Below are positions 3,549 through 29,507 of a stretch of DNA of 35,466 nt, one piece after another; positions within the stretch are counted from its first letter, which is position 1, and each line of letters starts with the position of its first letter. Under the pieces are notes generated by a model. The model was not told the DNA's origin. It saw nothing but the letters and a program-made list of their open reading frames with translations, and did not search any database. The stretch comes from Promethearchaeota archaeon (GTDB lineage Archaea; Asgardarchaeota; Lokiarchaeia; Sigyniarchaeales; SOKP01). Position numbers and translations under genes: made by a program. The stretch lies in contig JBHLME010000036.1 in NCBI GenBank assembly GCA_048938445.1, forward strand, positions 1 to 35,466, written 5' to 3'.

Positions 3549-4727
3549 TCAAACAATTTTTAAATTTTTAATAATATCTTCTAAATCTTCAGTAAATCTA
3601 AATAAATGCTCTTTAGTAACGTGAGGCATTATGACAACTCTTATTAAATTAAACTCCGTGAATTTTCCAAGCATCCAATGTCTTTTTCGAAACTCATCAT
3701 CTAATTCACAAATACTCTCCCCATTTTCTGTTGTTATTCCAAGAACATTCATCACGGGATCTGCTGCTAATTTTACACCATCTATTTCATTAATTCGCTT
3801 GGTCAAATATTCCGTATTTTCCATGCATTGTTTGATAATTTTATTATAACCCTCTATCCCTAAATATTTTAAGATTGCCCAAAAAGCAATTACTGTCCCC
3901 CCGGGTCTTGTTCCGACGATATGAAAGTGTTTAAAACCGCCGCCTGCAAGATATGGAATTTCAAAACCAGCATGGTGCAGTATTGAGTGGTCATTTAAGA
4001 AGAAACCACCAGAAGGAATGATACCTAAACCCATTTTATGAGGATCAGCTGTTATTGAACATACAGATTTCACGCTAAAATCCCAAGGAGGGAGGTTATA
4101 CCCTAAGTTTTTTAAAAATGGTAAAACAAATCCACCGAAAGCCGCATCAACGTGAAAAAAGATCTCTTTATCTTCTATAATTTTTCCTATTTGATCTATA
4201 GGATCAATTAAACCTAATGATGTAGTTCCTGCCACACCAACCACACCACATGTATTTTTTGTTATCAAGGATTCAAAGTGTTCAATGTCTAGTTCGAAAT
4301 TATCTTTTAAGTTAGCCTTTACAACTTTAACTCCCATTAAGTCTGCTCCTTTTTCAAATGACATATGTGCTGAAGCAGGGACAATTATTTCAGGATTTAT
4401 TATGTCTGGTCTTGATTTTTTAGCGATTCTCATGGCAACGATATTCGCTTCAGAACCACCTGTAGTTATTGTCCCAATAATATTTTTTCCATTGAAAAGT
4501 TCGCCAATTTCTGCGATTAATTCATTTTCTAAATCAGCCGTAGATTTAAATAGCCCAGGATCCCCTAGGTTTTTATCTAAATATTTCATATATACTTCTT
4601 TTCCAAAATCTAAAGGTGAAGTACACATTGATCCCAAGATATAACCCATATCATAAGAATAATCACTTTTCAGTTTATTTTCAAGAATTTCTAATATTTC
4701 TTCTTTACCCATTCCTTTATTTTGCAT
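3549..4727 (-). CDS. mfnA: PLP-dependent L-tyrosine/L-aspartate decarboxylase (MfnA/archaeal ADC), probably the beta-alanine source for CoA
   Basis: ILGSMCT, NLGDPGLF, TTGGSEAN, HVDAAFGG, ADPHKMG (PLP lysine), GTRPG; adjacent to PPS. Confidence 0.9.
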   Translation of the reverse strand: MQNKGMGKEEILEILENKLKSDYSYDMGYILGSMCTSPLDFGKEVYMKYLDKNLGDPGLFKSTADLENELIAEIGELFNGKNIIGTITTGGSEANIVAMRIAKKSRPDIINPEIIVPASAHMSFEKGADLMGVKVVKANLKDNFELDIEHFESLITKNTCGVVGVAGTTSLGLIDPIDQIGKIIEDKEIFFHVDAAFGGFVLPFLKNLGYNLPPWDFSVKSVCSITADPHKMGLGIIPSGGFFLNDHSILHHAGFEIPYLAGGGFKHFHIVGTRPGGTVIAFWAILKYLGIEGYNKIIKQCMENTEYLTKRINEIDGVKLAADPVMNVLGITTENGESICELDDEFRKRHWMLGKFTEFNLIRVVIMPHVTKEHLFRFTEDLEDIIKNLKIV

Positions 4728-5000
4728 ATAATCAATTCGCGAGGTTGATTTTTTCTTCTTAATATAATACTTACATTTCGAGAATATCCTTCTCTTTCAT
4801 TAACTATACTGTAATTCAGAATATTATAAAAAATTAATATTTTTTGATCATTAACATGTCATTTTTTAATATTAATAACCTTTCTTTAAAAAAGAGGTTT
4901 AGTTCGGATTATTGAAAGTCAATTTTGAAAAATATAAAATAACACAATAATAAAATTAAAAATTACATTTTTTACATTAAATAAAAACCTGAATTTAAAG

Positions 5001-5810
5001 ATGAATAATAATGAACATATTGATGATCAAGTTCCCCAAGATCATCCAAGATATCAAAGTTTGACCTATCGACATAAAATCATTGAAGGAATGAAGGATT
5101 TAGTTGTCGCTGAAGCAGGATTAATTGCTCACGGAAGAGGAGAGTGCTTTGACTATATTTTAGGTGAAAAGACTAATGATATTGCGAAAAGAGCAATGAG
5201 AGCTGCTGTTGCATTGTTGCTAATTTCAAAAAATCCCATTATTAGCGTGAATGGTAACACTGCCGTGTTGGTACCTGATGAACTTGTAAAGCTTTCAAAA
5301 GAAGTCAATGCACCCCTCGAGATTAATTTATTTTATAGAAGAGAAGGAAGAGTAGAAGCAATTACAACTGTCTTAAAAAATGCTGGTGCTACGGACTTGC
5401 TTGGAACTGATGAATCTAAAATGGTGGAAATTAAGGAATTAAGTAGTAATAGAAGGTTAGTTGACCCAAATGGAATAAAAATAGCTGATACGGTATTTGT
5501 TCCATTAGAAGATGGTGATCGAACTGAAGCTCTCAAAAAAATGGATAGAAATGTTATTGCGGTCGATTTAAATCCAATTAGCAGGACGGCTATTTGGGCA
5601 GATATAACTATAATAGATAATATCATAAGAGTCTTACCTGAAATGATAAACATTACTAAAGAATTAAAGCAACTGAGTGAGAAAGAATTAAAAAAGATTG
5701 TTGATGAGTTTGATAATAAAAAAAATATTCAAGAAACTCTCGAATTGATAAAAGAATATATTGAAACTCAAAAAGAAGAAGCATTTAAAATCTTAGTAGA
5801 TAAGATTTAA
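5001..5810 (+). CDS. pps: phosphopantothenate synthetase (4-phosphopantoate--beta-alanine ligase, archaeal PPS)
   Basis: HPRYQSL, GLIAHGRGECFDYILGE, ISVNGN, EINLFYR, VPLEDGDRTEAL, DLNPISRT. Confidence 0.93.
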   Translation: MNNNEHIDDQVPQDHPRYQSLTYRHKIIEGMKDLVVAEAGLIAHGRGECFDYILGEKTNDIAKRAMRAAVALLLISKNPIISVNGNTAVLVPDELVKLSKEVNAPLEINLFYRREGRVEAITTVLKNAGATDLLGTDESKMVEIKELSSNRRLVDPNGIKIADTVFVPLEDGDRTEALKKMDRNVIAVDLNPISRTAIWADITIIDNIIRVLPEMINITKELKQLSEKELKKIVDEFDNKKNIQETLELIKEYIETQKEEAFKILVDKI

Positions 5811-6787
5811 TTTTTCCCTTGTTCTAATCCCTTTATTAATGTGGTTAGTATTTTATTAATTGGTACTTCAATATTCAACTCTTTTGAATATTCTACAATT
5901 TTCGCGTTAATGAACTCAATTTCTGTTTTTTTGCCTTTTAAGATATCTTGTAACATTGAGTTTTTATTTTGATAAGTTTTTTCGGCGACATTAAAAGTTA
6001 GAGCTACGTAATCTTTTTTTGTTAAAATAATATTTTTTTTATCTGCAACGATTAAAGCTTCTTTAATTGCCCCTGCCATTAAAGATTTTATCCCTTTAAA
6101 TTCCAATAATTCTCCATTTTTTAATCTCGTAAGTGCTCCAATGGCATTAATTCCTATATTTACAAAAATCTTCTCCCAGCACTCCCTTATAATGTCATCT
6201 ACAATTATAGTTTCTAAACCTGCATCATTAAGCAAATCTTTTAATAATTCCAAAAATATTCTTGCGTTATTTGATAAATTTTCATCATAAAATGGAAAAC
6301 CAATCTTAGTTATTCCAATACCCGTATGTTTAACCCTTCCCGGTTTCTCAACTAAAGCACCATTAGTAGTAACTCCACGTATGATCTTATCTTTCTTACA
6401 ATATTTTATCGCAACTTCTTCATTACCAATTCCATTTTGTAAAATTACCAAATATTTGCAATCATCGATTAATTCTTTATATTGAATCATTGTAACTTCA
6501 ATATCATAAGCTTTTGTCGTTAAGAATAAAAAATCAAATGACCATGTTTTTTTTTCTTTAAATCCTTCGATACTCATGAAAACATCCAAATTTTTTAACA
6601 ATATTTCTGAATCTGCTTTTAATAAGTGTAATCCATCATTTTTAAAAACATTAAATTGAGATTCTTTTACAAAAAAAACAACATTAGGAGAATATTTCTT
6701 TGATTTCAGTGAAGCTAAACATGCTCCAATTAGTGATCCAATCGATCCTGCTCCAATGATGCCAATATATATTTCTCTTTGACTCAA
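5807..6787 (-). CDS. panE: 2-dehydropantoate 2-reductase (ketopantoate reductase)
   Basis: IIGAGSIG, TTKAYD, LQNGIGNEE, WEKIFVN, NSMLQD..GKKTEIEFINA. Confidence 0.93.
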   Translation of the reverse strand: MSQREIYIGIIGAGSIGSLIGACLASLKSKKYSPNVVFFVKESQFNVFKNDGLHLLKADSEILLKNLDVFMSIEGFKEKKTWSFDFLFLTTKAYDIEVTMIQYKELIDDCKYLVILQNGIGNEEVAIKYCKKDKIIRGVTTNGALVEKPGRVKHTGIGITKIGFPFYDENLSNNARIFLELLKDLLNDAGLETIIVDDIIRECWEKIFVNIGINAIGALTRLKNGELLEFKGIKSLMAGAIKEALIVADKKNIILTKKDYVALTFNVAEKTYQNKNSMLQDILKGKKTEIEFINAKIVEYSKELNIEVPINKILTTLIKGLEQGKN

Positions 6788-6807
6788 TTCGTTGGAGCTC
6801 CTTCATT

Positions 6808-8148
6808 TTATTTTTGTTTTTCCCATTTCTTTAGATAAGTTACTTCAGAAAGAGTGGACCCTCTTTTTATTTCTTCTCTATACCTATTTTCCTTTTCAAG
6901 CACATCTATGGCTCTGTTTACCATCTCTTGAGCTTTCTTTTTGGGCACGACGACAACTCCAGAATCATCTCCAATAATCCAATCTCCAGGATCAACTTTT
7001 TGACCCGCACATTCAATACTAACATTCGTCTCTCCTAAACCACGGGGTTCCCCTGCTGTAGGAGTAAAATTTCTTGCATATGCGGGAAATTTCATTTTTC
7101 TTATATCATCTATATCTCTAATAGCTCCATCAATAACCACGCCAGATATGCCTTTGATTTTACAACTCCATGATGCCAACTCCCCCCATACCGCAATTTT
7201 GCCCTCACAAGCATCAATTACTATGACATCTCCTGGCTGAGCTTCTTCTATTGCTTCCACGGGTTTACTCCAATCTCCATCATACGTTCTAACGGTATAT
7301 GCAGGACCAACGAATTTCAAAGGATATTCTTCAGTTCCGATCCATACTGATTTTAAACCGCGCATTTCACCTGTTCTATGCATCGCATCTGAGACATTTG
7401 GAGCAGATACTTTCATAAAAGCCTCTCTAATATGAGTTTCATCATATTTTTTAAACAACTCTGTTGGGATAGGATTTGTGGTCCTGATGGCTTCTTTTAT
7501 TTTTTTTGCTGTCTCTTCGGGATTTTGAGATTTATAAAGTGATCCTCCAACTATGATGACATCCACACCTATTTCTTTTGCTCTTGCTGCAGTTTCACTA
7601 TTGATTCCTCCCGCAATTGCTAACCAAGTAGTAGGCTGTAATTTTTCCTTTAATATCCGAGCTACATCTAGTGTTTTTTCTCCACCATAAATGACTTGTT
7701 GGTCTACTCCAACATGGGAGCAAATCATGTCTACTCCCAATGCCTCTAATTCCAATGCACGCTGAACCAATCTATCCTGCGGAATATCAATAGTGTCGCA
7801 ACCTAACATGACTCCATATTTTTGAGCTGCTTCCACTGCTTCTGTCACTGAAGCATTATCACTTCCACCTAGCATTAATACAATTTTAGCACCAGATTTG
7901 GCAGCCATTTCAATTTCTACAGAACCTCCATCAGCAGTTTTCATATCAGCAACTAATATGATATCCGGGAATTTCTTATGCAATGCTCTAAGTACGTTCA
8001 TTCCTTCTGACTTTATTAAGGGTGTTCCGGCTTCAATCCAATCAACACCGCCTTTAATAGCTTCTTCTGCTATTTGCAATGCTCTATGTGTATTGACCAA
8101 ATCTAATGCAATTTGAAGGTAAGGGTTATCTTCTCTTTTCCTCAGCAA
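6808..8148 (-). CDS. fusion of 3-hexulose-6-phosphate synthase (N-terminal) and RraA/HMG-aldolase-like domain (C-terminal)
   Basis: HPS motifs LQIALD, IEAGTPLIKSEG, ADMKTADGG, HVGVDQQ, AGGIN. RraA motifs NVSDAM, GPAYTV, PGDVIVID, AVWGEL, IDGAIRDIDD, PGDWIIGDDSGVVVVP. Confidence 0.9.
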   Translation of the reverse strand: MLRKREDNPYLQIALDLVNTHRALQIAEEAIKGGVDWIEAGTPLIKSEGMNVLRALHKKFPDIILVADMKTADGGSVEIEMAAKSGAKIVLMLGGSDNASVTEAVEAAQKYGVMLGCDTIDIPQDRLVQRALELEALGVDMICSHVGVDQQVIYGGEKTLDVARILKEKLQPTTWLAIAGGINSETAARAKEIGVDVIIVGGSLYKSQNPEETAKKIKEAIRTTNPIPTELFKKYDETHIREAFMKVSAPNVSDAMHRTGEMRGLKSVWIGTEEYPLKFVGPAYTVRTYDGDWSKPVEAIEEAQPGDVIVIDACEGKIAVWGELASWSCKIKGISGVVIDGAIRDIDDIRKMKFPAYARNFTPTAGEPRGLGETNVSIECAGQKVDPGDWIIGDDSGVVVVPKKKAQEMVNRAIDVLEKENRYREEIKRGSTLSEVTYLKKWEKQK

Positions 8149-8257
8149 AATTAATCACGAAGTATCCAAATCTTTATGATTATAATTAATGATATAATTT
8201 TTGAAATACAAGGTATAAGATAATTTTTATCATTTTTTGGATCTTTAGAGGGTAAAA

Positions 8258-9202
8258 CTATTCAGTTTTAATAATTTGGAGGCCTTTGTGATTAATAGAA
8301 GTTTTAATGAGAGTTATCTCTGGTTTATATGTTTCAAAAACTTCATTAACTATGGAAGAATCTTTTTTTTTACAGATAGCATAAATCGAGCGTCCTAACT
8401 GGTTCATGCTGGCACCTATTATCTTTATTTTATTTAAGCGGTTCATTAATTCTTTAGTTTTTATTAAGTGTAAAATGTCTAATATTCCTGTTTCTTCAAC
8501 AAATTCTTTAGAAACCTTAGCAAATGTTTCTATACTAGGTGCTTGTATTAATTTTTTTAATGCATTTTTACCTGCTTCTTTAATTTTAACATTTAATACC
8601 GGATCTGTTAAAATTGATTTTGTATGGATCATTCCAAAAGAACCACATATAACTTCGATATCTCGTGGTATTTGAATCATCTCTTGAACACAAGGATAAC
8701 CTGGTTCTTTTAACATGCACAGTCCTCCCGCTAATTGCCCACAAACGGTGCCTAATCCTGTTTTATTTATAACCTCAGCAACATGAGCAATTCTACCTTT
8801 CTCTTTTTGGTCTAAGTTGAGTTTTAAAATCTCATTTAATCCATAAATCATTCCTAAAGCTCCTGATCCGCTAGCACCATAACCACAACCAACAGGTAAT
8901 TCAAAAGAATGATTCACATGAATTTCAACAGGATTCTTTATTAAATGTCTTATAGAATTAAAAATAAAATAACTAGTTTCAGCTTTTTGGTTTAACTCTT
9001 CATTATTAATTTTAATTATACATTTTGATTCTTGATTTTTCTCAAGTTCTTGAACTCTTATCTCCGTCGTACCAATAGCATTAATATTAAATCCTGCACC
9101 TCTTGAACCTATTTTTTCAGGTTCTTGACTTACCTGATCTACTATTTCAAAGAAACCAGATATCCTATGCGGAACTTTGACAACTATTTTTCCTTTTTTC
9201 AT
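8258..9202 (-). CDS. pok: pantoate kinase (archaeal PoK, GHMP kinase family)
   Basis: PHRISGFF, GSRGAG, LPVGCGYGASG (GHMP P-loop), AHVAEV..KTGLGTV, SMNQLG. Confidence 0.9.
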   Translation of the reverse strand: MKKGKIVVKVPHRISGFFEIVDQVSQEPEKIGSRGAGFNINAIGTTEIRVQELEKNQESKCIIKINNEELNQKAETSYFIFNSIRHLIKNPVEIHVNHSFELPVGCGYGASGSGALGMIYGLNEILKLNLDQKEKGRIAHVAEVINKTGLGTVCGQLAGGLCMLKEPGYPCVQEMIQIPRDIEVICGSFGMIHTKSILTDPVLNVKIKEAGKNALKKLIQAPSIETFAKVSKEFVEETGILDILHLIKTKELMNRLNKIKIIGASMNQLGRSIYAICKKKDSSIVNEVFETYKPEITLIKTSINHKGLQIIKTE

Positions 9203-9553: not shown

Positions 9554-10135
9554 ATGAATCTTTCAGAAAAATATGAACTTTGGAATACAGAAGATGATTT
9601 GAATTGGGATGTTATTGAAATTTCAAAAGTTACTAATAAAATTATAAAAAATTTAGTAGAAAATCTCAAACGGGATTTATCTAATAATTTTTATATATCA
9701 TTTGAAAGCCTAATCAAAATTGGTAGAAAAAAAAATATAAAACCAATTGTTGAATCATACATTAAAACCATGATAAATGGTGATTGGCGTAAAGACCTCT
9801 TTAAATTCATCTTAAAATATATAAATAATAAAGATATAAAAAATCCTTTAATATTCCAATTATATAATCCAGATTTTATAAAGAGAGCAAGAGCTATAAT
9901 GCAAGTTCAACATGCAGGAGCATTAAATTATAGTAAAGTTATTTTATCATTAATGGATGATCCAGATGATTCTGTTAGATGGGCTGCTCTTAACTTTTTC
10001 ATTAGTCTTGATCAATTAAATAACTCGGAGTTTCAAAATAAATTAAAATCTCGAATAAATAAGGAGATAAATCAAACTATACAAAAAAAAATTTTTCAAA
10101 TATTATATGGAATTCAAATAAAAATGAAGAATTAA
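9554..10135 (+). CDS. HEAT/PBS-lyase-repeat protein
   Basis: LYNPDFIKRARAIMQV and LSLMDDPDDSVRWAALNFF match HEAT-repeat consensus. Confidence 0.7.
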   Translation: MNLSEKYELWNTEDDLNWDVIEISKVTNKIIKNLVENLKRDLSNNFYISFESLIKIGRKKNIKPIVESYIKTMINGDWRKDLFKFILKYINNKDIKNPLIFQLYNPDFIKRARAIMQVQHAGALNYSKVILSLMDDPDDSVRWAALNFFISLDQLNNSEFQNKLKSRINKEINQTIQKKIFQILYGIQIKMKN

Positions 10136-10164
10136 CAAAAAAAAGAGAAAAACCATAAAGATTC

Positions 10165-10347
10165 TTATTCTCTATGCCTGACATCTCGTGTTCTTGTTAA
10201 GTCCTTAAACTCCTGAGTTTTTTGTCTAATTATTTTTCGGCGTTCTACAATTCCTACTCTATTTTTTCGTAATAAATCTTCAAGTTTTTCTGTAAATTCT
10301 TCTAATGTTAAATTTTTATCCATTATAGAATCATAATCTATTCCCAT
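10165..10347 (-). CDS. small charged hypothetical protein (~60 aa; start uncertain, track extends it to 10431)
   Basis: MGIDYDSIMDKNLTLEEFTEKLEDLLRKNRVGIVERRKIIRQK... is amphipathic-helical; the upstream extension looks like AT-rich intergenic DNA. Confidence 0.55.
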   Translation of the reverse strand: MGIDYDSIMDKNLTLEEFTEKLEDLLRKNRVGIVERRKIIRQKTQEFKDLTRTRDVRHRE

Positions 10348-10512
10348 ATACATCACGTGACTTTTTTTAGTTATTAGAATTATGACTTGATTATGCATGT
10401 AAAATTTTTCTAAAAATATTATAAAATACAAGTTTTTATTATTTTGTTTTTACTAAAAAGAATCACTCATAAAAATTGCATTAATAAGGATTAGAATAAT
10501 TAGAATAATTAT

Positions 10513-12995: not shown

Positions 12996-13529
12996 ATGAC
13001 TACATACGATTATACTTTTAAAATCTTATTGCTCGGGGATGCTAGCGTGGGAAAAACAAGTTTTACCAAGAGATATTGTTATAACATATTTAATCCATCT
13101 GAACGCTTGACAATTGGGGTTGATTTTCACGTCAAGACTATCGAATTACAAGGAAATAAAATTAAACTTCAAATTTGGGACGTTGGAGGTGAAGAACGAT
13201 TTAGATTCTTGCTTCCTACCTATTGTCTTGGTGCAAACGCCGCTTTCCTTCTCTATGACATTACAAGACCAACCACTTTGAACAATATTCCTGAATGGAC
13301 ATCTATCGTGAGGGAAAAGGGTGGAAACATACCTATAATTCTTATAGGTGCAAAAATGGATCTTGCAGACACTCAGCGACAAGTCCCAACTGAATTAGGT
13401 GAACAAATAGCTCAGAAAAATAATCATACATCATTTTCGGAAATAAGTGCGAAAGAAAACCTTAATGTAAATGAAACTTTTCAAATCCTCTCCAAATTGA
13501 CATTAGATAGTATTGAAGGTAAAATATAA
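12996..13529 (+). CDS. Rab-like small GTPase (Ras superfamily, Asgard type)
   Basis: G1 GDASVGKTS, G2/RabF1 TIGVDF, RabF2 KLQIWD, G3 DVGG, RabF5 LLYDIT, G4 GAKMD, G5 ISAK; no prenylation tail. Confidence 0.93.
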   Translation: MTTYDYTFKILLLGDASVGKTSFTKRYCYNIFNPSERLTIGVDFHVKTIELQGNKIKLQIWDVGGEERFRFLLPTYCLGANAAFLLYDITRPTTLNNIPEWTSIVREKGGNIPIILIGAKMDLADTQRQVPTELGEQIAQKNNHTSFSEISAKENLNVNETFQILSKLTLDSIEGKI

Positions 13530-14579: not shown

Positions 14580-16136
14580 TTATTTTTTTGCTGTTCTTTT
14601 TTGTTGAGCTTTTAGGGCTTTTCCATAGTTTTCAAGAAGTTTTCGGGGTGTAACTGGATTCTCCTGTCGCTCAATCCTACCCAAGTTCTTCTTTATGCCG
14701 AAAAGATATTTTGCAATATTTTTTAAATTTTTAGTGTCATATCTTCCCATCATGGCAATTGTTTCCATTTGCGGAGAGCCGCCCCCGTGTAGACCAGCTA
14801 CCTGCAATAAACCTCCAAATTCGCTACATCCTAAAACTTCTATTCCCTTGAAGCATTTCACTACATTTTCCGGTTTGACGCGCGGATTTCTCTGCATGTA
14901 TTTAAATGCTAATTCACCAACTTCTTCATTAAAAAATGTTTCCAAGAAGGGAAGAGTAGCCATCATTCCACCAGCTATGTCCGCTAATATCTGGTATTCA
15001 TGATATATTTGTTCTCCCGCATGTCTTCTACCCGCATTAGTTAAGATTTCATCAGGAACCTGAGTCCCCGAGGATGCTTTTTCAGAATGGAAAGCACTTG
15101 ACTCTCCAGCAGCATACACGAGTTCTGCCGTTCCTAATATGTGACTAATTTTATCTTGGATATGCTTGGCCTGCTCTATACCATTATATTCAGCGACTAA
15201 TGCAGAAGCACTTGCTAAAATCTCGGAAATTGCAGGCTTACAACCACAATATGAATGCCTATGATAATGAGCAAACATTAATGCTAAAAATCCTGCATAA
15301 GGTACTTGCCGTGGATCTGCTTGAGCATTTAAAAAAACTCTCTCTTTAGGAACAAAAACATCATCAAAAATAATGAATGTTTCGACATCTCCAATTTCCA
15401 TTGTTTTTGGAATGAACTCCTTAGGTATGTCTGGGATGTGAGTATAAGCGGGTCGTGCAAGTAATTTTACTCCTTCCCAATCACCTGGTATAGCGAATGA
15501 TACGCAATAATCCGCATCATCGGGAAACATGATCCTGCAAGGCACCACTATTATCTCATCTACATAGGGTGTATTTGTAATGCATTGTTTTGCTCCACGA
15601 ACTATTATTCCATCTTCTCGTGTCTCGACAACTCTTAAATAAGCATCTGGATATTCTTGTTGTGATGGTCGTTTAGATCGATCCCCCTTGGCATCCGTGC
15701 TGGCACAGGAAGCTGCTAGGTCCTTTTCTTGAAACATTTTCATGTAATTCAGAAAATTTTGATAAAACGTTGTTCCAAGTGCTTGGTCACATTCATAAGT
15801 TACGACTGAAACCGCGTTTAATGCGTCGATTCCCATACATCTCTGTATGCATCCTCCCACTCGATGACATAATGCTCGAGTCATTCGCTGTTTCTTTAGG
15901 AGATCATCTTTGTTTTGATGAATATGCGTGAATCTATTAATTTTATTACCCGTTAGATGTGATGTAGCCGTGCATATATCTTCCCAATCAGGATCTTGAG
16001 CTTTTTCATAAGTTTCTTTTATGATCTGGATCCCTCCCCTAATCCTTGGATCATCACGTCCTACCTTTTCATTTCCAATCCAGACATTAGGTTTCATGGC
16101 ATGGAGGGCTTTTACATATTCTTCAACCGTTCTCAT
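14580..16136 (-). CDS. abfD: 4-hydroxybutyryl-CoA dehydratase/vinylacetyl-CoA isomerase family, copy A
   Basis: [4Fe-4S] ligands CIQRCMG and HRHSYCGCK, TDAKGDRS, GAKQCIT, LHGGGSPQME. Confidence 0.88.
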   Translation of the reverse strand: MRTVEEYVKALHAMKPNVWIGNEKVGRDDPRIRGGIQIIKETYEKAQDPDWEDICTATSHLTGNKINRFTHIHQNKDDLLKKQRMTRALCHRVGGCIQRCMGIDALNAVSVVTYECDQALGTTFYQNFLNYMKMFQEKDLAASCASTDAKGDRSKRPSQQEYPDAYLRVVETREDGIIVRGAKQCITNTPYVDEIIVVPCRIMFPDDADYCVSFAIPGDWEGVKLLARPAYTHIPDIPKEFIPKTMEIGDVETFIIFDDVFVPKERVFLNAQADPRQVPYAGFLALMFAHYHRHSYCGCKPAISEILASASALVAEYNGIEQAKHIQDKISHILGTAELVYAAGESSAFHSEKASSGTQVPDEILTNAGRRHAGEQIYHEYQILADIAGGMMATLPFLETFFNEEVGELAFKYMQRNPRVKPENVVKCFKGIEVLGCSEFGGLLQVAGLHGGGSPQMETIAMMGRYDTKNLKNIAKYLFGIKKNLGRIERQENPVTPRKLLENYGKALKAQQKRTAKK

Positions 16137-16160
16137 AATAATACCATTTTTATAAATATT

Positions 16161-16205
16161 TTTTATTATTAATAGAAATAAATATTAGAACAGTTTTAAA
16201 ATTGC
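16161..16205 (-). promoter_or_regulatory. conserved upstream block (core promoter) of abfD copy A
   Basis: 41/45 identical to 17942-17986 at the same distance from the start codon; contains a TATA-like TTTTAAAA. Confidence 0.6.
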
Positions 16206-16238
16206 ACCCTAAATTTAAACTATTACTCCTAATATGAT

Positions 16239-16256
16239 TTTTTACATATGTAAAAA
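16239..16256. promoter_or_regulatory. perfect 18-bp palindrome TTTTTACATATGTAAAAA, candidate operator
   Basis: Read directly; about 100 bp upstream of abfD copy A. Confidence 0.4.
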
Positions 16257-16358
16257 CGGTATACTTTTATGATGTTAGAGGTAGAGAAGAATAAACTTTA
16301 CTTTGCTTGTCAAATTTTAAGTTTTTTTTTAAAAAAAAAAAGGTTTTTAATAAAGAAA

Positions 16359-17918
16359 TTAATCTTTACATTCTGATTTATCTTGCTTAGCCTTGAGAGA
16401 TTTTCCAAAATTTTCAAGAAGTTTTCTGGGCGTGACCGGACTCTCCTGCCGCTCAATTCTCTCTAAACTATCATTAATTCCAAATAGAAATTTTGCGATA
16501 TTCTTGAGCTTATTGAAATCATATCTCTTAATCATTGCTATTGACTCCATTTGCGGAGATCCACCACCATGTAAACCTGCTACCTGTGTTAACCCTCCAA
16601 ATTCGCTACATCCCAATGCTTCTATTCCCTTAAAACATTTCACTACATTTTCCGGTTTGACACGAGGATTTCTCTGCATGTATTTAAATGCATCCTTTCC
16701 TACTTCTTCATTGAAAAATGTCTCCATGAAAGGTAGTGTAGCCATCATTCCACCAGCTAAATCCGCTAAAATTTTATATTCATCATAAATTTGTTCTCCC
16801 GCATGTCTTCTACCTGCGTTAGTTAAAATTTCATCAGGAACTTGGGTACCTGAAGATGCTTTCTCAGAATGGAATGCGCTTGACTCTCCCGCAGCATAAA
16901 CGAGCTCTGCTGTTCCTAATATGTGGCTAATCTTTTCTTGAGCGTGTTTTGCTTGCTCTATACCATTATATTCAGCAACTAACGCGGAAGCACTTGCTAA
17001 AATCTCGGAAATTGCAGGTTTACAGCCACAATACGAATGCCTGTGAAAATGTGCAAACATTAAAGCCAAAAATCCCGCATAAGGTACTTGCCGTGGATCT
17101 GCTTGACCATTTAAAAAGACTCTTTCTTTAGGAATAAAGACATCATCAAAAATTATGAACGTTTCGACATCTCCGATTTCAAGGGTTCGTGGAATGTATT
17201 CTTTCGGGATATCGGGAATATGATGGTATGCTGGTCGTGCAAGCAATTTAACTCCATCCCAATCTGCGGGAATGGCGAAAGACACGCAGTAATCAGCATC
17301 ATCAGGGAACATCATCCTACAAGGAACTGCAACTATCTCATCAACATACGGAGTATTTGTTATGCATTGTTTTGCTCCCCGAACTACAATTCCATCTTCT
17401 CGCGTCTCGACAACTCTTAAGTAAGCGTCAGGATTTTCTTGTTCAGAAGGGCGTTTAGATCTATCCCCCTTTGCATCCGTGCTAGCACACGAAGCTGAAA
17501 GGTCCTTTTCTTGAAACATTTTCATATAATTGAGAAAATTTTGATAATATGTCGTTCCAAGCGCTTGATCACATTCATATGTTACTACAGAAATTGCATT
17601 TAGCGCATCAATACCCATACATCTCTGAACACAGCCTCCCACACGATGACATAATGCTCGAGTCATTCGCTGTTTCTTTAAGAGATCATCCTTACTCTGA
17701 TGGATATGCGTGAATCGATTTATTTTCTCACCCGTAATGTGTGATGTAGCCGTGCATATATCTTCCCACTCGGGATCATGTGCTTTATCATACGTTTCTT
17801 TTACGATTACAATGCCTCCTTTTATCCTAGGATCATCTCGTCCTACCTTTTCATTTCCAATCCAGATGTTAGGCTTCATTGCATGGAGGGCTTTTACATA
17901 TTCTTCATACGTTCTCAT
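16359..17918 (-). CDS. abfD: 4-hydroxybutyryl-CoA dehydratase/vinylacetyl-CoA isomerase family, copy B
   Basis: CVQRCMG, HRHSYCGCK, LHGGGSPQME; collinear and highly similar to copy A. Confidence 0.88.
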   Translation of the reverse strand: MRTYEEYVKALHAMKPNIWIGNEKVGRDDPRIKGGIVIVKETYDKAHDPEWEDICTATSHITGEKINRFTHIHQSKDDLLKKQRMTRALCHRVGGCVQRCMGIDALNAISVVTYECDQALGTTYYQNFLNYMKMFQEKDLSASCASTDAKGDRSKRPSEQENPDAYLRVVETREDGIVVRGAKQCITNTPYVDEIVAVPCRMMFPDDADYCVSFAIPADWDGVKLLARPAYHHIPDIPKEYIPRTLEIGDVETFIIFDDVFIPKERVFLNGQADPRQVPYAGFLALMFAHFHRHSYCGCKPAISEILASASALVAEYNGIEQAKHAQEKISHILGTAELVYAAGESSAFHSEKASSGTQVPDEILTNAGRRHAGEQIYDEYKILADLAGGMMATLPFMETFFNEEVGKDAFKYMQRNPRVKPENVVKCFKGIEALGCSEFGGLTQVAGLHGGGSPQMESIAMIKRYDFNKLKNIAKFLFGINDSLERIERQESPVTPRKLLENFGKSLKAKQDKSECKD

Positions 17919-18084: not shown

Positions 18085-19023
18085 TTATAAGGTACTTTTA
18101 TGACAATAATTAACGACCTCCTTGGGATTTTGAAAGAGAAGTATTAGTTGACTAAATTGTATGGGATTAAACCAGAGATTTAATTTATCTAATTGATGAA
18201 GACTTCCTAATCCTTTAATTTCTCTTATGAGATTATTAGAGAGATTTAGACTTTCCAAATTAATTAAGTTTTCGAGACCTTTAATTTCTTTAATTCTATT
18301 ATGACTAATATCTAATTCTATAAGGTTGGTGAGATCTTTCAAACCCTCAATTTTTTCTATAGAGATTATTCCTCTCTTACTCAAGTCTAACGTGTTATTA
18401 TCGACAATTCCACAGATTTTATCTCTATAAGAAACACATTGCACGCTCTTTTTTTCTACTTCCTCTAAAATAATATCAGTTTCATCTCGTGTAAAATGTT
18501 CCATAAAACCTTCATTGATTAAATATTTCATGACATTCAAGTGTCCACTCGTGAACCTCTTGACAATCTCATCTTTAAATACGTTCTTTGCTATTGGATC
18601 ACCTGCTTCGGATAACTTTTTAAGCAAGGGAAATGCTAAATTAGAATGGAGCAAGCGCGTGTCGTAATCATTTTCAACCCACGCTTGCAAATTTGAACAA
18701 TGTGCCCAAAATTCCGTGTCAGGTGTTATGTTTAAAAATCTCCCATCCAAAAATTCCAATGAATGATTCAGGATCTCTGAAGCCTCATCAATGGAATCAA
18801 TCTGTTCTTGAACCTCCATTTTATCAATAGGAATATCTAATAATAAAAACCTGCATTGCTGAAACCGCTTCCCATTTATATAAATGTATGTTTTATAGTC
18901 TTGAATGGGTATGAAAACGTTTTTTGCAACCCATCCTAATAGTGATCCAACAATTCCCTGCTGAGTAGTCAAGCTATTTTCAAGCTTTAAAGTGATGAAT
19001 TCGTTAATTTTATACTCTTTCAT
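18085..19023 (-). CDS. leucine-rich-repeat protein with Lokiarchaeia-type N-terminal domain
   Basis: SDS22-like repeats LxxLDISHNRIKEIKGL and LNLSNNLIREIKGL; N-terminal EFWAHCSNLQAWVENDYDTRLLHSNLAFPLLKKL block recognised from Loki LRR proteins. Confidence 0.85.
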   Translation of the reverse strand: MKEYKINEFITLKLENSLTTQQGIVGSLLGWVAKNVFIPIQDYKTYIYINGKRFQQCRFLLLDIPIDKMEVQEQIDSIDEASEILNHSLEFLDGRFLNITPDTEFWAHCSNLQAWVENDYDTRLLHSNLAFPLLKKLSEAGDPIAKNVFKDEIVKRFTSGHLNVMKYLINEGFMEHFTRDETDIILEEVEKKSVQCVSYRDKICGIVDNNTLDLSKRGIISIEKIEGLKDLTNLIELDISHNRIKEIKGLENLINLESLNLSNNLIREIKGLGSLHQLDKLNLWFNPIQFSQLILLFQNPKEVVNYCHKSTL

Positions 19024-19164: not shown

Positions 19165-20484
19165 CTAGTGCTCTAAATCTTTCTCCAACTCATTAGAATC
19201 AGTTTCATCCTTAATAATTAATGGTTGGAATATTGTTATTTTAGGCGGACTCATTGTTAAGAGAAGTTCGGCAATCTTTGGATACTTCGCAATAAAGATA
19301 AATTCCTCTTTTACAAGTGGTTTTTGTTTATGGACGTTAGCATACCGAATTAATTCTAAAATTTGACGTGCCTCATCTTCATTTTTAAATGTTAAATTGA
19401 AATTTTTAAAGACATGCTGAAAGCTCGAAATTCCGCTATATTCACCTGTAGTGATAAGACGCCCAGTTTCAACCAGAATTTGCTCTCCCCTGCCTAATTC
19501 CTTATAATCATACAGTTCGTAATTTTCTCTATTTTTCAAAACTCCATCTGCATGAATTCCAGATTCGTGAGCAAAAGCATTATCGCCTACACCAGGCTGA
19601 TTCACTGGAATGGGCACTCCGAATGCATGGGAAGCATAATTAGCAATTTGCCATGCCTTGTCCAATCTTAGATTTGGATCTCCCATCCCTAATTCTTCAA
19701 TTTCAGCGCCATATTTTAATGCAAGAACGGTACTGATCAAATCACAATTCCCCGCACGCTCACCCATACTATTCACGGTTGTGTTGATATATGCTTCTTG
19801 TCCCTCTTCAATGACTCCTTTGGCGCCCATGATGCTGTTTGCAACAGCCATTCCTAAATCATTATGACAATGTAGCTCTATTGGTAAATCGACAGCTTTT
19901 GTTAGATCTTTCAATCTAAAATGAATGCGAAAGGGAGTTTCATATCCTAATGTATCACAATATCGAATTCTATCTGCCCCAGCTTTTTTTGCGGCTAGTG
20001 AAAACTTAATGAGGTAATCCATGTCCGTTCGTGATGCATCCTCCGCATTGACCCCTATAGTTTTGATCCCCAAATTCCTTGCTCGCTTGACTGCTTTGAC
20101 CATTATGTCTATGACATCATCTTTTGTTTTTCGACCTTGGAACTTTCCTTCAATCATTTGATTAGAGGTTGAGATCGACAAGTTTAAATGCTCTACTCGT
20201 GTTAATTCTACAGCTTGTTCCACATCTTCTTCCACGGCTCGAATCCACCCTTCGAGGATCATGGGCTTGAGAACGCCCATTCTGGCAAGTTCTAAATTAG
20301 CATTAATATAGTTCGTTTCATGATGTGTAGTTGGAAAACCGAATTCTGACTGGAAGATTCCCATGCGATTCAAAAGTATGTTTAAAACAGTTTTTTCAAG
20401 CTTTGCTAAGCCTAGTCGACTCGTCTGCACTCCATCTCGATTAGTAACATCAATTATTTTTATCTTATTGTCCATCTCTATCAA
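19165..20484 (-). CDS. DRE-TIM metallolyase, homocitrate synthase/Re-citrate synthase family
   Basis: DVTNRDGVQT, NAEDASR, RYCDTLG, HCHNDLGMAVAN, GERAGN, FAHESGIHADG. Confidence 0.85.
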   Translation of the reverse strand: MIEMDNKIKIIDVTNRDGVQTSRLGLAKLEKTVLNILLNRMGIFQSEFGFPTTHHETNYINANLELARMGVLKPMILEGWIRAVEEDVEQAVELTRVEHLNLSISTSNQMIEGKFQGRKTKDDVIDIMVKAVKRARNLGIKTIGVNAEDASRTDMDYLIKFSLAAKKAGADRIRYCDTLGYETPFRIHFRLKDLTKAVDLPIELHCHNDLGMAVANSIMGAKGVIEEGQEAYINTTVNSMGERAGNCDLISTVLALKYGAEIEELGMGDPNLRLDKAWQIANYASHAFGVPIPVNQPGVGDNAFAHESGIHADGVLKNRENYELYDYKELGRGEQILVETGRLITTGEYSGISSFQHVFKNFNLTFKNEDEARQILELIRYANVHKQKPLVKEEFIFIAKYPKIAELLLTMSPPKITIFQPLIIKDETDSNELEKDLEH

Positions 20485-20627: not shown

Positions 20628-21869
20628 TTATCTATAAATAATTTCAATATATTCTTTACTAAGATTTCCAACGTATTTTAACCGTGGTCTAATTAATTTA
20701 TTATCTCTTAACTGTTCTATCGCGTGAGCAACCCAGCCAACACTTCTTGCGGCGGCGAATAATGGTGTATAAAGTGCACTAGGTATTCCTAATGAGTGTA
20801 ATAATCCCGCAGAATAGAGATCTACATTTGGGAAAATTTGTTTTTCTTTAATCATGAAATCTGTTAAAATTTCCGTCATTTCAAAAATAAAATCGTCATG
20901 TTTATGATCATGACCCGTCTCTGTGATTTTATCGAGCCTTTCACCATTTATATATGCTTCATAGAATTTTTTGGCCAGTTGCCTCATGATTATGGCACGA
21001 GGATCCCAAGTTTTATAGACTCTGTGACCAAAACCCATGATTTTTTCTTTATTTGCTAATTTTTTCTGTGCCCAGGAAATGACATTATCATTTTTCTTTA
21101 CTTCATCTGTTAAATATCTAATAACTGCTTCATTTGCACCACCATGCAAGGGTCCTCTGAGTGTTCCAATTGCACTGGTAATTCCACTATAAAGATCGGA
21201 TAAAGTAGATACCGTCACCCTGCAAGAGAAGGTAGAGGCATTGTTAGAATGATCCGCATGACAAATTAAAACTTTATCGAATGCATCGATGAAATCTGCC
21301 GTAGGCATGTTCCCGGTCATCATGTAATAATAATTACCTGAATGTGATAATGTATCAGAAGGTTCAATCAAAGGTTGATTAGTTTGGATTCTGTGGGCAA
21401 ATGCGATGATAGTGGGCATTTTTGCAATGATTCGAATACCCTTTCGAATATTTGCCTCTTCAGAATAATCATAATCATCAGGATCATATAAAGATAATGC
21501 AGAAATGGCCGTCCGAAGTAATTCTATACGGGTAGTATTTCGGGGAAAACTTTGTAAGAGCCTAAGAACATTATCAGGAATGTTTCTCTCTTTTATTAAT
21601 AGCTGCTTGAATTCTTCTAATTGATTCTCTGCCGGAAGTTCTCCAAATATGAGAAGATAAGCAACTTCTTCAAAAGTTGAGTGTTTTACTAATTCTTGTA
21701 CCGCATATCCACGATAAAATAACTTCCCTTGTTCCCCATCTATATAAGATATTAATGATTCATCGACATATACACCAACGAGACCTTTAAAGACTTGGAC
21801 ATCCTCATATTTAACAGCACCATTAGTATCTTTATAATCTTCACTAATTTGTCTTGTATCTCCTTTCAT
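20628..21869 (-). CDS. gltA: Si-citrate synthase / 2-methylcitrate synthase family
   Basis: LFYRGY, FEEVAYLL, HADHSNNAST, GPLHGGANE, MGFGHRVYK..DPRA, FPNVD, LIRP. Confidence 0.92.
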   Translation of the reverse strand: MKGDTRQISEDYKDTNGAVKYEDVQVFKGLVGVYVDESLISYIDGEQGKLFYRGYAVQELVKHSTFEEVAYLLIFGELPAENQLEEFKQLLIKERNIPDNVLRLLQSFPRNTTRIELLRTAISALSLYDPDDYDYSEEANIRKGIRIIAKMPTIIAFAHRIQTNQPLIEPSDTLSHSGNYYYMMTGNMPTADFIDAFDKVLICHADHSNNASTFSCRVTVSTLSDLYSGITSAIGTLRGPLHGGANEAVIRYLTDEVKKNDNVISWAQKKLANKEKIMGFGHRVYKTWDPRAIIMRQLAKKFYEAYINGERLDKITETGHDHKHDDFIFEMTEILTDFMIKEKQIFPNVDLYSAGLLHSLGIPSALYTPLFAAARSVGWVAHAIEQLRDNKLIRPRLKYVGNLSKEYIEIIYR

Positions 21870-22325: not shown

Positions 22326-23855
22326 ATGATTTGGAATAAAATATTATTAGTTGTTACTAATTATAAAACACCAGGTTATGACTTTTATGACTCAGCATTT
22401 CCTCCATTGGCATTAGAGTACATTGCAGCTCATGTAGAGGATTTGGTTGAAGTTAAAATACTTGATACTAAAGCCGGTAATTTAGGTTATAAAAAAATTA
22501 TTAAAGAATTTGAAAAGTATAAACCTGATTTAGTCGGATTTACCGTTCCTGTAACAAGTGCTATAACCACTGTTTTAGCTCACGCAAAACTAGCTAAGCA
22601 AGTTCTTAATTGTACTACCGTAATCGGTGGTTGGCATCCCACTCTAGCAGTAGAAGAAACGCTTTCATCACCTTGGATAGATATTCTGGTAAGAGGAGAA
22701 GGCGAAAATACATTTAGAGAGCTGATTGAAAAAGGAAGTCCCGAAGGGGTTAAAGGATTGTCTTATAAAGTAAATGGTGTAATGATTCACAACGAGGATC
22801 GTCCATTTATTAAGGATATTAACACTTTAAAATTTCCAGCAAGAAATTTAGTAAATAATTATAAATATAGAGCCTTTTATTTGAAATGTGATGCGATTGA
22901 AACCTCTCGTGGATGTCCTCAAGGATGTCGATTTTGCAGTACTCACGTGGTATATAAAAGAAAATGGAGGGCTCGTTCTGTTGAAAACATAATTCAAGAA
23001 CTAGAACTTATTTCTAAAAATCGACGGATTTCCGACGTCTTTTTCGTTGATGATAACATTCTTGTAAACATGAATCGTATAGGTAAAATGTGCATTGAAA
23101 TAATCAAGGCTAAAAGAGAAGGAAGAATCAAAAAAAGACTACGGTTCTTCTTTCAAGGAAGATTAGATTCCATGGCACGTCATCCAAAAATAGTAAAACT
23201 AATGGCTTTAGCAGGTTTCTGGCTCGTGTTAGTTGGAGTTGAAGCAACTGATAATAATCGATTAAAAAAAGTTGAAAAAGGATGTAAAATCGAACAAATT
23301 AGAAAAGGTATTGAAGTCCTGCATGAAAACGGAATTATCGTGATGGGAAATGTCATAATTGGAGCGAATTTAGACGATTCCATTGATGATGTATTTGTAA
23401 CCATAAAAAAAACGAGAGAATTAACTTTAGATATTCCCAGCTTTACTCTTTTAACGCCTTTTCCATCAACAGAATTTTATCGAGAAATGAAAGAACGCAA
23501 CCTGCTTTTAACAGAGGATTATTCAAAATTTAATTGGTTAAATCCTGTTATTAAAACAACTAATTTCAGTTCTTCAGTATTGAAAAAGCTACTTTTTCTT
23601 GGATTTTACTATATTGGATTTTATGGAGGATCTTGGTCAAATAAAATTACTGTTCTTAAAAGAATTGCACGAGCGAGAGGTTTTAGATTTTTCCTAAATC
23701 CCTATCGTATTTCTCGAGGAATAAATGCATATTTAAAGTGGTATCGAATGGTGAAGCGAAATATTTCGGATATAAAAAGAAAGGCTAAATATCAACTACG
23801 ACTCGGAAAATTAAATAAAATGTTAGAACTTAAAGAACAAATTATATCTATTTAA
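22326..23855 (+). CDS. cobalamin-binding radical SAM protein (class B-like)
   Basis: PPLALEYIAA, VIGGWHPT, VRGEGE, ETSRGCPQGCRFC (CxxxCxxC), FVDDN, GVEA, LTPFPST. Confidence 0.92.
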   Translation: MIWNKILLVVTNYKTPGYDFYDSAFPPLALEYIAAHVEDLVEVKILDTKAGNLGYKKIIKEFEKYKPDLVGFTVPVTSAITTVLAHAKLAKQVLNCTTVIGGWHPTLAVEETLSSPWIDILVRGEGENTFRELIEKGSPEGVKGLSYKVNGVMIHNEDRPFIKDINTLKFPARNLVNNYKYRAFYLKCDAIETSRGCPQGCRFCSTHVVYKRKWRARSVENIIQELELISKNRRISDVFFVDDNILVNMNRIGKMCIEIIKAKREGRIKKRLRFFFQGRLDSMARHPKIVKLMALAGFWLVLVGVEATDNNRLKKVEKGCKIEQIRKGIEVLHENGIIVMGNVIIGANLDDSIDDVFVTIKKTRELTLDIPSFTLLTPFPSTEFYREMKERNLLLTEDYSKFNWLNPVIKTTNFSSSVLKKLLFLGFYYIGFYGGSWSNKITVLKRIARARGFRFFLNPYRISRGINAYLKWYRMVKRNISDIKRKAKYQLRLGKLNKMLELKEQIISI

Positions 23856-28227: not shown

Positions 28228-28776
28228 TCAAGAATTCCAGGTAATTTTAATTGAAGTTTTATTAGCACCATTCCAAGATTTTTCAATAAAGCTAGTAGTG
28301 ACTCTTGTACTTAGGTACATTTCAAAGAAACTAGCCATCCATCCTTTTGCGGAATTATAGAATACTTCAAAATCTTTATCAAAGTCATCAATTATTACGT
28401 GAATCTCATTCTCCGAGATAATTTCTCCATATTGCCTTCCAAAATTAAACCATAAGTTAAATAAACGGTTATAAGAATTTAATGCCATATTTAGATCTTT
28501 TTTATTCATGGGTGAATTGTATGTACGTTCTATCATCGTTTTACCATAATCATAACTCCATTTCTCAATTATTCTCAAATTACCTCTAGCTTCCACCTTA
28601 CAGACAGCGATTATGCAACGCTTAAAAGTATCAAATGGATACCAAGCAGCATCAAGGATTCGTTGACTAATTACTTGTTTATCTTCTTCTGAAATAAGGT
28701 CGTCATATATACCGGTTTTATTCGCTCTAATAGCGATTGCCCATGCTTTAAATAATGATCCTTTAATCTTTTTCAT
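28228..28776 (-). CDS. array copy 1 (subtype A), H-NOX/V4R-like 182 aa
   Basis: MKKIKGSLFKAWAIAIRANK, ILDAAWYP, LWFNFG, KSWNG, TWNS. Confidence 0.85.
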   Translation of the reverse strand: MKKIKGSLFKAWAIAIRANKTGIYDDLISEEDKQVISQRILDAAWYPFDTFKRCIIAVCKVEARGNLRIIEKWSYDYGKTMIERTYNSPMNKKDLNMALNSYNRLFNLWFNFGRQYGEIISENEIHVIIDDFDKDFEVFYNSAKGWMASFFEMYLSTRVTTSFIEKSWNGANKTSIKITWNS

Positions 28777-28854
28777 TTAAATCAACTTCTTAAATGTTAC
28801 ATTAAAGAGTTAAATTAATGTTATTAAAGTGATTAGAAATGACATTATTATATG

Positions 28855-28869
28855 TGTACAACACGTACA
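28855..28869. promoter_or_regulatory. palindrome TGTAC-N5-GTACA upstream of array copy 1
   Basis: Read directly; lies immediately upstream of a TATA-like TATAAT on the minus strand. Confidence 0.4.
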
Positions 28870-28958
28870 AACTGATAACAATAAAAACTAATTTTATAAT
28901 AGAAAAGGGGATTTTTTTCCAAAATTAATATGAAAAACAATATGTTAATGAAATATAA

Positions 28959-29507
28959 TTAAAAATTCCAGGTAATATTTACAACTGTTCTTGTATCACC
29001 ATTCCAAGACTTTTCTAAAAACTTTGTGGTTACTTTAGTGTCGAGGTAACCTTCAAAAAACGAACTCATCCATCCGCGAGCCACGTGATAAAAGGCTTCA
29101 AAATCGGGATCAAATTCTTCAATATAAATATTTAATTCGTTTTCAGATTCAATCTTTCCATATTGCTTCCCGAAATTAAACCATAACTTAAACAAATTAT
29201 TATAAGAGTCGACAGCATCACGTAATTGTCTTTTCATCATTGGACCCCGATAAAGGCGTTCAATAGTTTCTTTCCCTGCATTATATCCCATTTTATAAAC
29301 TATATTCATGTCTCCTTTCGCAAAAACCTTTACGATGGCATTAAAACTATTTTTAAAGGTCGTAAATGGATACCAAGCAGCATCAAGAATACGTGTATTA
29401 ATAATTTTAATGTCCTCTTCTGGAATGATTGTTTCATAAACACCACTTTTATTTGCCCTAACGCCCTTTACAAAGAATTTTAATAATGCTCCCTTAACTT
29501 TTTTCAT
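28959..29507 (-). CDS. array copy 2 (subtype B), 182 aa from ATG 29507
   Basis: MKKVKGALLKFFVKGVRANK; start reassigned from 29522 by alignment with the paralogues. Confidence 0.85.
   Translation of the reverse strand: MKKVKGALLKFFVKGVRANKSGVYETIIPEEDIKIINTRILDAAWYPFTTFKNSFNAIVKVFAKGDMNIVYKMGYNAGKETIERLYRGPMMKRQLRDAVDSYNNLFKLWFNFGKQYGKIESENELNIYIEEFDPDFEAFYHVARGWMSSFFEGYLDTKVTTKFLEKSWNGDTRTVVNITWNF

Follow-up and report, generated by a model that had tools for sequence, protein, structure and literature searches.

How do organisms without PanB (3-methyl-2-oxobutanoate hydroxymethyltransferase) make ketopantoate for coenzyme A (CoA), a cofactor that is universal? The question is raised by a 35,466-nucleotide stretch of Asgard DNA (contig JBHLME010000036.1, assembly GCA_048938445.1; hereafter the window). 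It corresponds to contig C129 in a Promethearchaeota metagenome-assembled genome (MAG) of 4.63 Mb with 96.5% completeness and 8.2% contamination, and its G+C content is about 0.24-0.37. It carries a cluster of CoA genes in which a protein that fuses HPS (3-hexulose-6-phosphate synthase) to an RraA-like domain stands beside ketopantoate reductase, and in which panB is absent. Judging from sequence and genomic context, we consider it likely that this HPS-RraA fusion supplies ketopantoate as a non-homologous substitute for PanB.

The cluster lacks only the PanB step

The window encodes all steps from ketopantoate to 4'-phosphopantothenate, together with a source of beta-alanine. The sole missing activity is that of PanB. 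The five genes of the cluster are:

3549-4727, minus strand: mfnA-type pyridoxal phosphate (PLP) decarboxylase (TIGR03812, 442.8 bits, cut-off 299.4)
5001-5810, plus strand: pps, 4-phosphopantoate--beta-alanine ligase, the archaeal phosphopantothenate synthetase (PF02006, 234 bits; NF010324, 356, cut-off 227; NF041123, 300.7, cut-off 300)
5807-6787, minus strand: panE, ketopantoate (2-dehydropantoate) reductase (PF02558 and PF08546; TIGR00745, 234.8 bits, cut-off 141)
6808-8148, minus strand: HPS-RraA fusion, 446 amino acids, candidate bifunctional ketopantoate synthase (NF005442, 609.1 bits, cut-off 593)
8258-9202, minus strand: pok, probable pantoate kinase of the GHMP kinase family (PF00288; NF041122, 1e-37, 130 bits; NF040725, 3e-33)

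The pok, fusion and panE genes share one orientation, with 109 bp between pok and the fusion and 20 bp between the fusion and panE. The pps gene runs convergent to panE and overlaps its 3' end. Both top matches of pok, NF041122 and NF040725, fall below their equivalog cut-offs, and the next family, homoserine kinase, is far weaker (5e-08). The mfnA-type decarboxylase is the probable source of beta-alanine; we base this role on the Thermococcus kodakarensis GDC, which figures among CoA genes in a passage of PMC6650551.

PanB is absent from the genome as a whole. A search of all 4.63 Mb with the PanB profile PF02548, in which four candidates were scored, returned no match at E ≤ 0.01, and the same search was positive in 11 of 14 control genomes. 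A first-pass annotation, made from the DNA letters alone, had described pok, the fusion and panE as co-oriented and followed by pps and mfnA, had found every step after ketopantoate but no panB, and had called for a genome-wide search. Its reading frames and gene identities agree with the profile matches, and the search extends its negative finding from the window to the genome.

Both domains of the fusion look catalytically active

The fusion belongs to a family that is already known and named; it is the predicted function in the pantoate pathway that is new. Residues 8-446 align with positions 3-430 of NF005442 (PRK07028, bifunctional HPS/RraA-like) and score above its cut-off. The protein is made up of two domains:

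7471-8124, minus strand: N-terminal HPS domain, residues 9-226 (PF00215, 112 bits over residues 9-217)
6850-7437, minus strand: C-terminal domain, residues 238-433, RraA-like and of the HMG/CHA class II aldolase type (PF03737, 159.3 bits, cut-off 24.5, residues 250-400)

There is no profile match between the fusion and the PanB family, and the likeness to PanB proposed here is one of function, not of homology.

The motifs of both domains are retained. The translation contains E39-A-G-T, D68-M-K70-T-A-D73 and H145-V-G-V-D149, corresponding to ExGT, DxKxxD and HxGxD, which we take, with the first-pass annotation, to be the catalytic motifs of HPS. It also contains W321-G-E-L and D340-G-A-I-R344-D345, whose Arg-Asp pair presumably forms the 2-oxo acid and Mg2+ site, going by the roles of these residues in the literature on the aldolase structure 3noj. 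Every motif quoted by the first-pass annotation, including the RraA signature WGE...DGAIRDxxD, is thus present. Once two truncated copies and two duplicates were set aside, 55 distinct fusions remained for alignment, drawn from Asgard archaea, Chloroflexi and Methanomicrobia. Invariant residues of the HPS domain are E39, G41, T42, H145, G147 and D149, and D68, K70 and D73 are conserved in 54 of the 55; the aldolase domain is invariant at G322-E-L-A, R344, D345, G370, G372 and E373.

Structural comparison points the same way. The closest Protein Data Bank (PDB) sequences to residues 9-226 are the HPS entries 9lj9 (162.6 bits) and 3ajx (119 bits), and the closest to residues 256-424 is the HMG/CHA aldolase 3noj (77 bits), whose R-D pair lines up with R344-D345. 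From an alignment of 24 sequences, AlphaFold gave a confident model (predicted local distance difference test, pLDDT, 90.6; predicted template modelling score, pTM, 0.77), which was compared with solved structures using Foldseek. The template modelling (TM) score is 0.93 to HPS 3ajx and 0.80 to 3noj (root-mean-square deviation 3.1). Among the solved structures, Foldseek found no counterpart of the two-domain architecture. With motifs conserved in at least 54 of 55 sequences and folds that match HPS and HMG/CHA aldolase, both domains look catalytic.

The database name of the protein, "hexulose-6-phosphate synthase/ribonuclease regulator", is very probably a carry-over rather than a description of its function. 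The fusion shares Pfam family PF03737 with RraA, the RNase E regulator, but scores far below the RraA equivalog cut-offs (NF006875, 68.5 against 136 bits; TIGR02998, 35.9 against 241).

Genomes seldom carry both the fusion and PanB

We profiled both proteins across four samples of genomes:

Asgard phylum, 251 genomes: fusion in 28; PanB in 2 of these 28 (G178, G217) and in 187 of the other 223
Halobacteriota phylum, 201 genomes: fusion in 131; PanB in 0 of these 131 and in 38 of the other 70
Methanomicrobia class, 121 genomes, overlapping the Halobacteriota sample: fusion in 120; PanB in 0 of these 120 and in 0 of the 1 other
Chloroflexi order of genome G002, 71 genomes: fusion in 2 (G002, G644); PanB in 1 of these 2 (G644) and in 59 of the other 69

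The 28 Asgard genomes comprise 26 with NF005442 matches above the cut-off, one with a near-full match (G020) and one with a copy cut by the end of a contig (G069). A search with the RraA domain recovered the identical 28. For 12 of the 15 Asgard genera that bear the fusion, PanB was found in no sampled member. The fusion is rare in a class-wide Chloroflexi sample (2 of 201), and PanB was therefore profiled in the order sample instead. Across all seven Chloroflexi genomes known here to have the fusion, PanB occurs in one (G644); the five beyond G002 and G644 are without it. A weak PanB-like match in G004 (26-36 bits) belongs to the PEP-mutase family (PF13714, 191.6 bits) and not to PanB, and the PanB-like matches in G005 and G008 lie under the cut-off. 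Of the control methanogens, Methanosarcina acetivorans carries the fusion and lacks PanB, and Methanocaldococcus jannaschii has neither.

This complementarity also appears among close relatives. Within the Asgard genus g7, G220 has only the fusion, and G148 and G154 have only PanB. In the Chloroflexi order, G002 has only the fusion, set against PanB in 59 of 69 fusion-less order-mates. The anti-correlation that the first-pass annotation had proposed as a check is therefore seen in the Asgard, Halobacteriota and Chloroflexi samples.

The fusion recurs in pantothenate gene clusters

Fusion genes from distant Asgard families lie among the same partners. A gene of the pantothenate pathway occurs within the 1.5-kb flanks of the fusion at 11 of the 28 Asgard loci. 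These loci include the nearest relatives of the window (L044, from G178, with L006 and L013), and also distant families whose fusions are only 52-57% identical to that of the window. The order pok-pps-[fusion]-panE-mfnA, on a single strand, is found in L024 (family f3) and in L025, L026 and L028 (f14), and the fusion adjoins panE in L031, L034, L035 and L049 (f21) and in L038 (f10). Homologues of pok adjoin pps in L024, L025, L028 and L054, the last from an Asgard genome with PanB and no fusion, where the order is pok-pps-panB. We widened the flanks of six of the 17 Asgard loci that lack a nearby pan gene. This placed mfnA 3.2-4.1 kb upstream in three and panE 2.4 kb downstream in one, and revealed none in two. 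No RraA gene accompanies the stand-alone HPS genes of Asgard family f18 (L056-L058), an observation that is neutral to the proposed function.

The cluster in the window once contained both genes. In its closest relatives (L005, from G178, and L013), panB sits between the fusion and panE, where the window has only 20 bp. Thus, the cluster already held the fusion and then lost panB from beside it. The first-pass annotation had stated that the fusion occupies the slot of PanB. This is literally so in Chloroflexi and in the distant Asgard clusters; it does not describe the nearest relatives of the window, where panB lies beside the fusion.

The Chloroflexi fusions, which are 54-60% identical to that of the window, lie in a different type of pantothenate operon. 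At five of the seven Chloroflexi loci that we looked at, the fusion gene is within the bacterial operon. Locus L012 reads, on one strand, Rossmann/DUF2520 oxidoreductase - PanD (TIGR00223) - fusion - PanC (TIGR00018), and L011, L014 and L016 have this arrangement or a near variant of it. In L012, L014 and L016 the fusion stands between panD and panC, which is the exact position of panB in the sister genome G644 (L090), where the order is DUF2520-panD-panB-panC-[fusion]. In G004 and G278, neither of which has PanB, the order is DUF2520-panD-panC without an intervening gene, and the fusion is elsewhere. The Chloroflexi thus form a series: panB alone in most order-mates, panB and the fusion in one operon, the fusion in the place of panB, and the fusion elsewhere. 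The DUF2520 gene has no NCBIfam name; we presume it to be a PanG-type ketopantoate reductase.

PanD, PanC and the DUF2520 protein are not homologous to the archaeal partners MfnA, PoK/PPS and PanE. Because the partner enzymes differ in this way, the link between the fusion and the pantothenate pathway has arisen at least twice. The recurrent linkage to pan genes anticipated by the first-pass annotation is thus found in distant Asgard families and, independently, in the panD/panC operons of Chloroflexi. In a midpoint-rooted tree of the 55 fusion sequences (FastTree, LG+gamma), the Methanomicrobia form their own clade, and the Chloroflexi copies fall inside the Asgard sequences, beside genus g10. 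This nesting is provisional, as the tree was read without support values. It suggests that the fusion gene may have passed from an Asgard-like archaeon into Chloroflexi.

A predicted pterin-independent ketopantoate synthase

The step catalyzed by PanB is the one that the fusion is placed to perform. In both types of cluster, all steps are assigned except that of PanB; the C-terminal domain offers the required chemistry and the N-terminal domain a source of formaldehyde. A passage of PMC4814558 describes PanB as a class II, metal-requiring aldolase that enolises alpha-ketoisovalerate, which makes an Mg2+-dependent 2-oxo-acid aldolase a chemically apt analogue. The first-pass annotation had proposed that the fusion replaces PanB, and this reading gains support from the genome-wide absence of PanB, the anti-correlation and the recurrent linkage.

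In the scheme that we infer, which extends to the reaction, its substrates and direction, the one-carbon donor and any channelling, the fusion would be a bifunctional, pterin-independent ketopantoate (2-dehydropantoate) synthase. The HPS domain would split D-arabino-3-hexulose 6-phosphate into ribulose 5-phosphate and formaldehyde, the direction of the reverse ribulose monophosphate (RuMP) pathway of archaea. The HMG/CHA-type aldolase domain would bind 3-methyl-2-oxobutanoate (2-oxoisovalerate) via its Mg2+/Arg-Asp site, and the metal-stabilised enolate would combine with formaldehyde to give ketopantoate. PanE would reduce the product, and PoK, PPS and MfnA-derived beta-alanine would carry it on to 4'-phosphopantothenate. 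Joining the two domains would keep formaldehyde, which is toxic and scarce, local, as Fae-HPS does for tetrahydromethanopterin. We hold this full mechanism, with hexulose 6-phosphate as donor, with moderate confidence.

The wider metabolism of the window's genome bears on the two substrates. No IlvD was found in the genome by a search that was positive in 14 of 14 controls, and two class-IV, branched-chain-type aminotransferases are present (C111:28953-29681 and C71:16072-16800). Thus, 2-oxoisovalerate is probably drawn from valine rather than made de novo. A separate Fae-HPS is encoded elsewhere in the genome (NF009833, 530.9 bits, cut-off 274). This enzyme covers pentose synthesis, so the fusion is not required as the only HPS of the genome.

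The predicted enzyme resembles several known systems in part. With PanB (PF02548, TIGR00222), the fusion is predicted to share both its 2-oxo acid substrate and its product, as well as metal-stabilised enolate chemistry of the class II type (for PanB, in a passage of PMC4814558), and the two genes take the same place in pantothenate clusters. It differs from PanB in being unrelated in sequence and fold, and in its donor: methylene-tetrahydrofolate for PanB, and, by our prediction, formaldehyde from hexulose 6-phosphate for the fusion. The HMG/CHA aldolase of Pseudomonas putida (3noj) has the same RraA-like fold, and it can be aligned with the fusion at both the R-D pair and the G-(D/E)-L motif. 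However, it is only about 25% identical to the aldolase domain, its sequence does not match invariants of the fusion family such as A365-G-E-x-x-G-x-G-E373, and the fusion is joined to HPS in a biosynthetic context rather than one of aromatic degradation. Fae-HPS (NF009833) and HPS-PHI (9lj9) also join a member of the HPS family to an enzyme that deals with one of the reactants of HPS. In the fusion, by contrast, the partner is a 2-oxo-acid aldolase, and formaldehyde is predicted to enter a biosynthetic carbon skeleton rather than pass onto methanopterin. The fusion is therefore best described as a predicted class II 2-oxo-acid aldolase with a new substrate pair, joined to a one-carbon donor enzyme and analogous to PanB.

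On balance, we think it probable that hexulose 6-phosphate, and not methylene-pterin, is the physiological one-carbon donor for CoA in Methanomicrobia, Methanosarcina-type methanogens, many Asgard archaea and some Chloroflexi, the gene having moved from an Asgard-like archaeon to Chloroflexi and displaced panB in place.

Alternative explanations

Several observations weigh against the fusion as a direct replacement for PanB. The HPS domain narrowly misses the cut-off of its equivalog TIGR03128 (182.4 against 200 bits). The aldolase domain lies under the cut-offs of the CHA-aldolase equivalogs (NF006731, 115 against 179; TIGR02798, 101.4 against 304.5), so that its substrate is not assigned by profile. 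The top candidate in the window's genome for 6-phospho-3-hexuloisomerase (PHI), the supplier of hexulose 6-phosphate, is below threshold (119 against 160 bits). Pan genes are absent within 1.5 kb of the fusion at 17 of 28 Asgard loci, and within about 6-7 kb at all 17 Methanomicrobia loci that we looked at, so that the case for Methanomicrobia rests on presence and absence. PanB and the fusion occur together in G178, G217, G644 and the genome behind L013; in G178 (L005), L013 and G644 their genes lie in one cluster, and these co-occurrences look like redundancy during displacement. Neither gene was found in 36 of 223 fusion-less Asgard genomes, 32 of 70 fusion-less Halobacteriota and M. jannaschii, which indicates that other routes, auxotrophy or incompleteness exist. 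The split may also partly track the one-carbon carrier, folate or methanopterin, rather than direct replacement. Finally, the counts treat related genomes as independent, which overstates their statistics, and they include many incomplete MAGs.

These points feed three other explanations, each of which we consider unlikely. The fusion could belong to the pantoate pathway without being the condensing enzyme, its HPS domain feeding formaldehyde or methylene-pterin to another hydroxymethyltransferase and its RraA-like domain acting as a regulator or in side chemistry such as oxaloacetate decarboxylation. Synteny marks membership of a pathway and not a step in it, the clusters with both PanB and the fusion (G178, L013, G644) could mean cooperation, and PDB titles record non-catalytic regulators among RraA-family proteins. 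We nevertheless regard this explanation as improbable. Among Asgard and Halobacteriota genomes, respectively, 187 and 38 have PanB but no fusion and 26 and 131 have the fusion but no PanB, so neither needs the other, and the assigned steps of both cluster types leave no unassigned gene for the condensation. The aldolase R-D and G-E-L motifs, conserved in 55 of 55 sequences, point to catalysis over mere regulation, and the fusion misses the RraA equivalog cut-off. Slightly less probable again is that the aldolase domain alone is the ketopantoate synthase, the HPS-like domain acting on another sugar phosphate or as an assembly aid, with formaldehyde or methylene-pterin coming from elsewhere. Consistent with this are the near miss to TIGR03128 and the Asgard family f17, where stand-alone RraA-like proteins (236-254-amino-acid frames; L101-L104, from G051, G068, G060 and G041) that are 43-46% identical to the aldolase domain occur in four of five genomes, and where none of the five has PanB or the fusion. 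These proteins may be a split or HPS-less form of the same function; no pan gene was found in the flanking DNA covered around their genes, which is neutral. The Chloroflexi copy L016 (8001-9338) also fits, being alone among the fusions in carrying D68R, K70E and D73N in the HPS motif. The substitutions in L016 represent either assembly errors or an HPS-inactive variant, and errors are possible because the adjoining DUF2520 gene is matched in two frames, an apparent frameshift. Against an idle HPS domain stand its catalytic motifs, invariant or conserved in 54 of 55 copies, its nearest solved relatives, which are true HPS enzymes, and the parallel of Fae-HPS, which joins HPS to a consumer of formaldehyde.

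The least probable of the three is that the fusion is a reverse-RuMP or formaldehyde-handling enzyme unrelated to CoA, in which HPS makes ribulose 5-phosphate and the formaldehyde is quenched on pyruvate or another 2-oxo acid. In that case, lineage and type of one-carbon carrier would underlie both the pan linkage and the anti-correlation with PanB. The near-universal presence of the fusion in Methanomicrobia (120 of 121) would fit such a role, as would the lack of pan genes around it at all 17 loci covered in that class and the Asgard loci without adjacent pan genes. Furthermore, methanopterin organisms may lack the folate-type donor of PanB, which could alone yield the complementarity. Yet linkage is seen in two domains of life with non-homologous partners, including positional replacement of panB in a bacterial operon, and the complementarity holds inside one Asgard genus (g7) and one Chloroflexi order. 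The RuMP role is already filled by Fae-HPS in the window's genome, and panE is retained 20 bp from the fusion although this genome has no PanB to make its substrate.

Other features of the window and related loci

Two adjoining HpaB-family genes (PF11794 and PF03241; 518 and 519 amino acids) occupy positions 14580-17918 on the minus strand, and the DNA downstream of them encodes an HMGL-like synthase at 19165-20484, a citrate synthase at 20628-21869 and a B12-binding radical SAM protein at 22326-23855. About ten tandem open reading frames of similar size (181-187 amino acids) at 28228-35134, minus strand, look like a paralogous gene array; the one that was scanned (28228-28776) has no Pfam family. 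The window also encodes a Ras-family small GTPase (12996-13529, plus strand) and a leucine-rich-repeat protein (18085-19023, minus strand). In the related Asgard genome of L007, the fusion is flanked by Ras/Roc and Gtr1/RagA-like GTPases (5963-7753 and 9557-10501). These GTPases and the leucine-rich-repeat protein are typical eukaryote-like signature proteins of Asgard archaea.

Sequences related to the fusion occur in other forms. In the Asgard genera g39 and g9 (for example G185:C1:24140-24787 and G223:C1:2107762-2108448), open frames of about 600-860 amino acids, some with an in-frame TGA or TAA, hold an HPS domain close in sequence to that of the fusion (about 260-277 bits). These frames could represent further HPS fusions or neighbouring genes joined by read-through, and the genomes that carry them all have PanB. 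Two Halobacteriota genomes, G671 and G768, each have two matches to the fusion family, and the second match in G671 is partial (295 amino acids).

Implications for CoA biosynthesis

Genschel is said to have noted in 2004 that the enzyme making ketopantoate in PanB-less methanogens had not been identified, and we know of no enzyme for the first step of pantoate synthesis in these organisms. Our samples agree with this gap: M. jannaschii, M. acetivorans and all 121 sampled Methanomicrobia are without PanB.

In full-text searches of a largely open-access literature, the titles and abstracts returned make no link between HPS-RraA and pantoate synthesis, and the link is likewise absent from the passages of PMC7264889, PMC11237513, PMC6650551, PMC7883664 and PMC4814558 that the search covered; an earlier mention, for instance in supplementary tables of comparative-genomics work, is possible.

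A widespread protein that is mis-named as an HPS and ribonuclease regulator thus gains a specific candidate function. If the prediction is true, the fusion would be a new analogous enzyme in a core vitamin pathway, tying pentose and formaldehyde metabolism directly to CoA synthesis, and the gap-filling of this pathway would be corrected in models of methanogen and Asgard metabolism. The fusion would also make a non-orthologous displacement visible at all of its stages, with only the resident gene, both genes side by side, and only the newcomer. A reportedly long-standing gap in how archaea make CoA is narrowed to a question about one protein.

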